Assembly (NCBI RefSeq): GCF_057098645.1
Contig: NZ_CM169472.1
Direction: 5' to 3' (one strand)
Length of the DNA stretch: 64,000 nucleotides
Part shown: positions 1-36,818 of the stretch, piece after piece
Layout of the letters: every line of letters begins with the position of its first letter
Position numbering within the stretch: the first letter of the stretch is position 1
Position numbers and translations under genes: made by a program
The notes under the pieces: generated by a model
What the model saw: only the letters and a program-made list of their open reading frames with translations
Told to the model about the DNA's origin: nothing
The model's database searches: none

Positions 1-406
1 TTACGTGATTATTAAGTCGCCTTTTCAGGGCGATATAATCCACGCGCTTTTCCTTTACGTAATACTCAAGCCAGTAGGTGAGCGCATCGCCAACCGTTAC
101 GGGCTTTAACGCTTCCTGTACGGTGTAATTCATCTCATGACGTGGATTTTTCCCCTCAGCCAGCCATGTGCGACACTGTGCGGCTTTTTCCCTAGCTGCT
201 TTCAGGCTCAGATCAGGATAACTTCCCAGCTTAATGCGTTCGGGTCGTGTCTCCCTTCCCGTTCCGGCCCTGTATGTGAAATACCAGGTCAATTTCCCTG
301 ATGTTAAATATTTCACGCTCAGGTTTCCGCCATCACTATAAAACGTGTTTTTCTCCGCTGGCTTACCATGAAGTTTCCTTAGCAAGGTATCGCTCAGTTT
401 GTTCAT
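1..406 (-). CDS. Tyrosine recombinase / phage-type integrase, P4-like; only the N-terminal ~135 codons are in the window and the 3' end lies beyond the window start
   Basis: Minus-strand reading frame from ATG at 404-406 to position 1 has no stop. Translation MNKLSDTLLRKLHGKPAEKNTFYSDGGNLSVKYLTSGKLTWYFTYRAGTGRETRPERIKLGSYPDLSLKAAREKAAQCRTWLAEG... fits the arm-binding N-terminal domain pattern of P4-family integrases. Absent from the ORF track because it is truncated by the window edge. Confidence 0.6.
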   Translation of the reverse strand, partial: MNKLSDTLLRKLHGKPAEKNTFYSDGGNLSVKYLTSGKLTWYFTYRAGTGRETRPERIKLGSYPDLSLKAAREKAAQCRTWLAEGKNPRHEMNYTVQEALKPVTVGDALTYWLEYYVKEKRVDYIALKRRLNNHV

Positions 407-441
407 TGCTCTGCTCACGTTTTACCCCCTCTTTACGAAAA

Positions 442-465
442 AGTGACTACACCAGTGACTACACC
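442..465. repeat. Perfect 12-bp tandem direct repeat AGTGACTACACC x2 in the integrase upstream / junction region
   Basis: Read directly: agtgactacacc at 442-453 and again at 454-465, about 40 bp upstream of the integrase start codon. Confidence 0.9.
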
Positions 466-615
466 GATCGTTGCACAAAGGGCTACAACGTGAAACAAGC
501 TGGAACAAGGAAAATCACAAATCTGTTGATAATCAAAAACATAATGCACAGCCTGAAACATTATGAAACAGCAAAAAACACTAAATGATAAAATGCTGTT
601 ATTCTTAACCCGCTG

Positions 616-1500
616 GTGCAACACATGGTCCGCTGGCGAGTGCCGCGTGTACTGGCGGTGTCGATTTTGATGACCATCATCGTGATGGCTATGGTGTTGC
701 TGTTAGCTTATCTGGGTTCCGCGCTCAACGAGTTGACGCGGACGTTACCGCAATATCGCAACTCTATTATGACGCCGCTGCAAGCTCTTGAGCCGTTGTT
801 GCAACGCGTAGGGATTGACGTCTCAGTTGACCAGCTGGCGCATTACATTGATCCGAACGCGGCGATGACGTTGCTCACCAACTTATTGACGCAGTTATCT
901 AATGCCATGTCATCAATATTTTTATTGCTGCTGACGGTGCTGTTTATGCTGCTCGAAGTGCCACAATTGCCCGGAAAATTTCAGCAAATGATGGCGCGTC
1001 CGGTTGAAGGGATGGCGGCGATTCAGCGTGCGATTGACAGTGTGTCTCATTATCTGGTGCTGAAAACAGCCATCAGCATCATCACCGGCCTGGTCGCATG
1101 GGCGATGCTCGCCGCCCTCGATGTTCGCTTCGCTTTTGTCTGGGGATTGCTGGCCTTTGCGCTTAATTACATCCCTAATATTGGTTCAGTTCTCGCGGCA
1201 ATCCCCCCTATCGCTCAGGTACTGGTGTTTAATGGCTTCTACGAAGCGTTGCTGGTGCTGGCGGGATATCTGCTGATTAATCTGGTCTTCGGCAATATTC
1301 TGGAGCCGCGCATCATGGGACGTGGGCTGGGGCTTTCGACATTGGTGGTATTTTTGTCGTTGATTTTTTGGGGATGGTTGTTAGGACCGGTGGGTATGCT
1401 GCTTTCCGTGCCGTTGACAATTATTGTCAAAATTGCGCTTGAACAAACAGCGGGAGGTCAAAGCATCGCCGTTCTGTTAAGCGATCTCAATAAAGAGTGA
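616..1500 (+). CDS. tqsA: AI-2 exporter TqsA (AI-2E/PerM family), apparently 5'-truncated; 294 codons from GTG 616, with an in-frame ATG at 625
   Basis: 294-aa ORF of a polytopic membrane protein; synteny with pntB. The in-frame upstream sequence (466-615) is non-hydrophobic and carries stops at 586-591. K-12 TqsA is 344 aa as I recall. Confidence 0.8.

Positions 1501-33929: not shown

Positions 33930-36818
<2,889 letters not shown>

Follow-up and report, generated by a model that had tools for sequence, protein, structure and literature searches.

Arm-type sites are textbook features of phage integration. Those of lambda Int are reportedly P1, P2 and P'1 to P'3 (Ross and Landy, 1982). The five lambda arm sites, two on one arm and three on the other, are used differentially in integration and excision; the lambda int promoter lies outside the arm, and the N-terminal domain of the lambda enzyme comes from a different Pfam family than Arm-DNA-bind_3.

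Two described systems are closer to the locus analyzed here. In attL of KplE1 (CPS-53), the arm-type (P') sites of the integrase IntS and the sites of TorI have been mapped (Panis et al., 2010, PLoS Genet, PMC2951348). The IntS arm sites overlap the int promoter and their occupancy represses int, so that negative autoregulation has been demonstrated in this system (PMC2951348). In helper-embedded PICIs (HE-PICIs), Mageeney et al. (2023, NAR Genom Bioinform, PMC10111431) described an attP "doubled motif," tgTGTATTGCantgTGTATTGCa, with copies 81 +/- 2 and 132 +/- 2 bp from the attP centre. They reported that it is confined to HE-PICIs and that other PICIs, those at fis among them, lack it, and they kept Int, AlpA and an unknown protein as possible binders (PMC10111431).

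Here we analyze a doubled 12-bp motif that lies upstream of an integrase gene in a stretch of 64,000 nucleotides, which we call the window. A preliminary description of this DNA had suggested that the repeat might represent arm-type recombinase sites, operator iterons or part of an att site. Our results extend the published observation and open no new category: arm-type sites are long established, a 2+2 arrangement of doubled motifs was described in 2023 for HE-PICIs, and the repeat in the window is, by sequence comparison, its counterpart in a sister clade.

The Repeat and Its Immediate Surroundings

Direct reading and a pattern search both place back-to-back copies of AGTGACTACACC at 442-453 and 454-465 on the plus strand. 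Tandem Repeats Finder reported a period of 12, 2.0 copies, 100% match and a score of 48 for 442-465, bearing out the perfect 12-bp tandem of the preliminary description. There is no other exact AGTGACTACACC in the 64-kb window, where the nearest other match, with one mismatch, is at 21728 on the minus strand. By our own estimate (64000 x 4^-12), 64 kb of random sequence should contain about 0.004 perfect 12+12 tandems, and we therefore conclude that the repeat is not an accident of composition. It starts 23 bp upstream of the int GTG (416-418, minus strand), closer than the approximately 40 bp claimed before, and lies just upstream of the Shine-Dalgarno sequence. The features of the region are these:

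1..418, minus strand: the first 139 codons, or 5' part, of the gene for a P4-type tyrosine integrase, which leaves the window at its left end
425..432, minus strand: Shine-Dalgarno-like sequence AGAGGGGG, found by direct reading 6 nt ahead of the GTG start codon of int
442..465, plus strand: doubled motif, AGTGACTACACC twice (in int sense, GGTGTAGTCACT twice), the proposed int-proximal pair of arm-type half-sites
466..593, plus strand: remaining 128 bp of the int-proximal attP arm, with the class B blocks, an IHF-like site and a core-adjacent stretch
594..602, plus strand: identity block TGCTGTTAT, common to attB, attP and both junctions; the crossover falls within it
603..1500, plus strand: 3' fragment of tqsA (AI-2 exporter), a chromosomal gene cut by the insertion

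The GTG start (MSRAMNKL...) is based on the RefSeq annotation of near-identical copies and on an ATG at the equivalent codon in relatives. The part of int that lies in the window includes the N-terminal arm-DNA-binding domain. In a full-length homologue that is 99% identical (L001), Pfam PF13356, Arm-DNA-bind_3, covers aa 8-95 (E 1.4e-18) and is accompanied by Phage_integrase; the enzyme is a heterobivalent integrase of the P4/CP4-57 type. Homologues of the Arm-DNA-bind_3 domain have been solved in the apo form (3JTZ, 3JU0).

A scan of the whole window found no tRNA genes, implying that this is not a tRNA-associated att site. Two further candidates were discarded. A possible third unit, degenerate and following the pair in register at window 478-489, lacks conservation among relatives, and a role in leader RNA structure was dropped when the fold of the int leader with the repeat gave a nonsignificant z of -1.47.

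Co-oriented Pairs Flank the Core of the Excised attP

To the right of the junction are the 3' 300 codons of tqsA, followed by pntB and pntA. The insertion site is chromosomal tqsA, between mdtJ and pntB, and tqsA has been listed among the genes interrupted by an integrative element (PMC7192596). When K-12 attB, the O26 left junction, the right junction in the window and an attP contig (L084) are aligned together, the classical attB x attP relationship is seen; both this alignment and a longest-common-substring analysis define the shared block TGCTGTTAT. The crossover block lies at 594-602, and the repeat sits, as had been proposed, within the junction region, more exactly in the element-derived arm.

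It had been considered that the motif might be conserved chromosomal sequence with no copy near the other end of the element. The data point the other way on both counts. Complete copies of the element, in O26 11368 and PE164, carry a second co-oriented tandem pair, AATGACTACACC AGTGACTACACC, on the same strand and 72 bp inside the other junction. The uninterrupted tqsA region of K-12 contains no copy of the motif, even with one mismatch allowed. All four units are ANTRACTACACC, a sequence different from the core, TGCTGTTAT; the int-side pair is 128 bp from that core and the far-arm pair 72 bp.

The excised attP itself is present in L084, a metagenomic contig of 11,098 bp from a virome collection (IMG/VR), which is terminally redundant and therefore circular. 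Its order is int, a first pair, 128 bp, TGCTGTTAT, 72 bp and a second pair, with 209 bp between the pairs. Together, the far-arm pair, the motif-free tqsA of K-12 and the attP of L084 establish that the motif belongs to the element and is found on both of its arms. As expected of arm-type sites, the pairs lie in element-derived attP arms, outside the crossover and absent from attB; the repeats occur on both arms and are unlike the core, and the integrase has a separate N-terminal arm-binding domain.

The insertion splits tqsA at about codon 50, and the element provides no replacement 5' end, so that the AI-2 exporter probably stays inactive as long as the satellite is in place.

The Host Element Is a PICI-Family Satellite

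The junction (window 1-1500) was found in 246 of 5,426 complete E. coli genomes, and the tqsA part alone in 5,422. Of int, no more than the first 418 nt fall in the window, and the cargo of its own element lies outside it; complete copies in other genomes show what such elements carry. In O26:H11 strain 11368, the insertion at the same junction is 14.9 kb long (L001 33636-48503) and encodes int, alpA, a D5-type primase, SSB, PerC, capsid, protease, portal, head-completion, HNH and TerS/TerL proteins, the gene set of a capsid-forming PICI (10.1101/2022.09.08.507074). The closest genome, PE164, is 99.4% identical and also has the far-arm pair. Its 11.4-kb element (L302 5650-17126) has classical PICI cargo, with capsid, decoration and TerS genes. 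The complete copies agree with the definition of PICIs and cf-PICIs as islands of 10-15 kb with int, alpA, primase/helicase and packaging or capsid genes, no tail or lysis genes and an att site of their own. We conclude that the element is a PICI-family phage satellite inserted in tqsA. That a helper phage may induce and mobilize it has indirect support in L084, a circular contig with attP from a virome collection.

A single int-attP module, with int 99% identical and the tqsA core, is thus associated with cf-PICI cargo in O26 11368 and with classical cargo in PE164 and in a viral contig (L047). Recombination module and cargo reassort. Separately, the non-coding far end of the cf-PICI (L001 33940-34120) contains long imperfect inverted repeats, such as 33997-34029 and 34035-34067 (33 nt, 79% complementary), which could be a structure of the cos or ori type.

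The Doubled Architecture Is Conserved across Integrase Relatives

Related E. coli integrases, with 70-91% nucleotide identity, occupy four other sites: phoQ/roxA, smrA/abgR, clpS/cspD and thiM/rcnR. More distant homologues, with 53-63% amino-acid identity, were collected from Salmonella, Serratia, Yersinia and Klebsiella by a homologous-protein search, together with the contigs that encode them. Counting relatives with readable upstream DNA gives 46, from seven attB sites and five genera, and every one has a pair with a 12-bp period upstream of int, 14-58 bp from the int start. At loci covering the whole element, a second co-oriented pair is present on the far arm in all 14 distinct elements (O26 11368, PE164 and 12 others); no copy of the pair on the opposite strand was seen among these 14 loci.

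The consensus of the unit is A-N-N-R-A-C-Y-N-C-A-C-M. Spacing between the two pairs is 208-210 bp in nine elements representing seven attB sites, and the cores of these elements differ: TGCTGTTAT, AAATATGTCC, TCACGATATT, ATAACTATCAT, ATACGGGTATTTCT and the fis 3' end. Variation in the unit can be matched between the arms. In one element (L006), all four units contain CTGACCACAC, so that the variant is present on both arms together. The unit types of the elements compared below are:

L004-type elements: TAACTACACC
L006-type elements: TGACCACACA

The same arrangement reaches the HE-PICIs, whose integrases are 40% identical to that of the tqsA element, have the same domains and are accompanied by an equivalent TGTGTATTGCA pair; again, the variant unit is present on both arms.

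A search of 2.9 million viral contigs with a degenerate form of the doubled motif returned 99 matches, of which about 95 are such arms. The pattern also matched unrelated DNA. One example (L071 5041-5110) is a five-fold ACTACACCAAYA repeat within a phage ORF, a coding TTP repeat that specifies a Thr/Pro-rich peptide repeat; two other contigs (L008 3057 and L033 253) contain AATAACTACACCAGTAACTACACC outside any satellite arm context. Most IMG/VR prophage contigs begin exactly at int and hence lack the upstream arm. A contig scan using an integrase alignment gave only two distant, irrelevant matches, and the peptide patterns were too specific.

A chimeric element (IMGVR_UViG_2859821903_000003) is of the tqsA type in aa 1-55 of Int and in its int-side pair, and of the phoQ/roxA type in the rest of int, AlpA, the far-arm pair and the core, AAATATGTCC. 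On its int side, the chimera (L116/L062/L063) carries units of the AGTG type, against ATTG or ATTA on the far arm, and this mismatch implies that unit positions 2-4 are tolerant rather than strictly matched. Residue 36 of Int is K or R according to whether unit position 4 is G or A; in view of the linkage and of the mismatched arms of chimera L116, this correlation was set aside.

A core-adjacent stretch, AAAAAACACTAAATGATAAAAT (window 573-593), is conserved among elements whose cores and attB sites are wholly unlike, and the integrase or an accessory protein may make a core-flanking contact there.

Two Classes of Repeats and Their Candidate Binders

Each arm carries two classes of repeats: class A, the 12-mer pair, and class B, units of the RAACAA type with a 10-11-bp period. 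The class B units in the window (TGAAACA, TGGAACA, AAATCACA) form two blocks, 491-520 and 554-580, between the 12-mer pair and the core. Three further copies follow the far-arm pair (L001 33746-33778). In int sense, class B reads TTGTTCG, TTGTCCG or TTGTTYC. Between the two blocks, at 520-536 on the minus strand, there is a near-consensus IHF-like site, TATCAACAGATTT, and its ATAATCA core is found at the same place in relatives.

Two comparisons separate the classes. Between L004 and L006, AlpA is 97% identical and class B is the same; class A differs on both arms and the N-terminal domain of Int differs too. Conversely, between L002/L003 and L004/L005, AlpA is only about 60% identical and class B is different, while class A is identical, as is the Int N-domain segment NDGGNLSVRHSTSGLLTWY, which in the L002 versus L004 comparison is a beta-sheet segment of Int. 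In these comparisons, class A appears to go with the N-terminal domain of the integrase, and class B goes with AlpA. Physical linkage of the int-side pair to the 5' end of int means that the match between unit and N-domain is in part co-inheritance by hitch-hiking, and chimera L116 has mismatched arms at unit positions 2-4. Across relatives, the sequence type of class B tracks the type of AlpA, and the class B repeats are probably AlpA (RDF) sites, judging from this covariation and from their likeness to the mapped TorI sites of KplE1 attL.

These data bear directly on the most serious alternative, that the doubled motif is itself bound by AlpA or another small DNA-binding protein and acts as an RDF site, or as an operator that governs excision and the expression of int. 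AlpA (Pfam Phage_AlpA) is encoded beside int in every relative. Its candidacy is also favored by the 12-bp period, which is near the spacing of RDF sites, typically direct repeats about one helical turn apart according to PMC7498355, and Mageeney et al. name AlpA as an alternative binder of the HE-PICI doubled motif (PMC10111431). Nevertheless, we judge this explanation rather improbable. The units differ on both arms where AlpA is nearly the same (L004/L006) and are identical where AlpA is not (L002/L004). The 12-mer pair does not track AlpA type, as a site for AlpA should, whereas the RAACAA class, with its period of about 10-11 bp, does, and its resemblance to the TorI motifs GTTCG/GTCCG makes it the better AlpA candidate. 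Moreover, a pair on either side of the core, each at a set distance from it, is the pattern that Int arm sites should show.

The other alternatives account for less of the evidence. A role confined to int, with the int-side pair serving as a transcriptional operator or promoter element and the far-arm copy being incidental, would fit the placement of the pair, which in every relative is 14-58 bp upstream of int, and has the KplE1 precedent for such sites regulating int. We regard it as improbable to a greater degree, since the far-arm pair adjoins no gene start, yet is conserved, co-oriented and held at 208-210 bp across seven attB sites, a constraint that makes sense only in the context of attP and the intasome; nor is there a promoter consensus over the pair. 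Neutral duplication by replication slippage, which a perfect two-copy tandem resembles if recent, is hardly credible for a two-unit, 12-bp arrangement that persists down to 40% integrase identity, with diverged units, on both arms and at fixed spacing. Across the att arm (406-588, plus strand, within an open frame listed at 301-588) there is a RefSeq annotation for a hypothetical protein of 60 aa, WP_001332680.1, in which the repeat would encode SDYT-SDYT. That the peptide explains the repeat is very improbable, and the annotation is probably spurious to judge from its frame, which is unconserved in relatives: it is interrupted or much shorter in L006, L177, L178 and L179, where the DNA motif is kept. 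In addition, the ORF overlaps the int start in antisense and the far-arm copy is in non-coding DNA. Equally hard to sustain is the reading of the repeats as iterons of a satellite replication origin. Iterons are typically short tandem direct repeats, usually three or more, located at the origin beside the initiator gene, but these have only two units per site, flank the att core with the primase/helicase 3-5 kb away and have a spacing tied to the crossover site. The operator iterons of the preliminary description accordingly survive in one sense only: an operator role for int is plausible, and the replication sense is not supported.

A Model for Integrase Docking and Autoregulation

Of the three readings offered initially, arm-type recombinase sites is the best supported, as predicted sites, on the strength of the far-arm pair and the motif-free tqsA of K-12. 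We consider it likely, from the sequence comparisons, that the doubled motifs are four arm-type half-sites for the N-terminal domains of an Int tetramer and that the int-side pair also represses int. We infer the identity of the binder from the position, copy number, geometry, conservation and between-arm matched variation of the units and from the presence of an arm-binding domain; docking by the integrase is the most likely interpretation.

In this model, the two pairs would supply four half-sites bound by the four Arm-DNA-bind_3 domains of the integrase tetramer, with the catalytic domains holding the core sites, so that bent arms and core could assemble as an intasome. The intasome would serve integration and, together with AlpA, excision. 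AlpA at the class B repeats would give directionality, and a host bending protein may assist at the IHF-like site (about 520-536).

With tqsA divergent and pntB set off by a terminator, the only place for the int promoter in the prophage state is 466-593. This would place the int-side pair between the int promoter and the int ribosome-binding site, and bound integrase should therefore repress int. By analogy with KplE1, autoregulation through the int-side pair is probable. A scan of 300-720 for sigma-70 promoters found none, which makes autoregulation the weakest, inferential step of the model.

Significance

The repeat is now an identified part of the recombination site of a mobile element, whose boundary is set at 594-602, and tqsA is shown to be interrupted by an excisable satellite. 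The one published account of such a motif restricts it to HE-PICIs; the comparisons indicate that a doubled architecture, diverged in sequence, runs through related satellite integrases whose elements occupy chromosomal sites in several genera of enterobacteria. A broader proposal, to which we give an even chance, is that 2+2 half-sites of 12 bp, 208-210 bp apart, are the common minimal attP scaffold of the P4-type satellite integrase clade (PICI, cf-PICI, fis-PICI and HE-PICI) and so not a peculiarity of HE-PICIs. If this is true, fixed arms and spacing combined with an exchanged short core would explain how the clade hops among many attB sites, and would amount to a modular, retargetable integrase system in which a separate, AlpA-specific repeat class gives directionality. 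Confirmation by binding and mutagenesis would provide a simple rule for annotating PICI-type attP arms, as well as a constrained scaffold in which to study or engineer changes of integrase target site.

Comparison with Known Systems

The likeness to lambda is general: a heterobivalent tyrosine recombinase and repeated non-core sequences on both arms, with adjacent direct repeats on one.

The correspondence with KplE1 is closer. IntS has the architecture of the tqsA-element integrase (Arm-DNA-bind_3, Phage_int_M and Phage_integrase), and in both systems int runs outward from the att core and has its promoter region within the recombination arm. The components also come in the same order: core, two blocks of RDF or RDF-like sites with a period of about 11 bp, known or proposed Int arm sites and the int start codon. 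In int sense, class B matches the core of the TorI sites, GTTCG/GTCCG/GATCG (PMC2951348). In contrast, the P' consensus of KplE1 contains TAAA, and there are more than two such sites, some of them inverted; the insertion target of KplE1 is tRNA-argW rather than tqsA; and its RDF is TorI, which falls below the Pfam Phage_AlpA threshold. Binding and regulation have been demonstrated in KplE1 and are predicted for the tqsA element.

The HE-PICI doubled motif shares with the repeat described here its tandem doubling, its 12-bp period and its two co-oriented copies per attP. The pair edges of the tqsA element are 76.5 and 132.5 bp from the attP centre, and the int-side pair lies directly upstream of the int start codon (the ATG, in HE-PICIs) in the same orientation. 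In sequence, the int-sense units share only GTGTA.T (GGTGTAGTCACT in the tqsA element versus TGTGTATTGCAA in HE-PICIs); about half of the unit positions differ, and the HE-PICI core sequence TGTATTGC is not found in the tqsA-element unit. One HE-PICI (L193 1088-1160) has a third copy of TGTGTATTGCAA that the published description does not mention; it follows the doubled motif at 18 bp and stands about 20 bp from the int ATG. The sites of insertion differ as well, HE-PICIs being located in a late gene of the helper prophage and the tqsA element in a chromosomal gene. Finally, the scope is wider than the published one, as each of six further attB groups, like the fis-site PICIs (L177, L179), carries its own version of the doubled motif.
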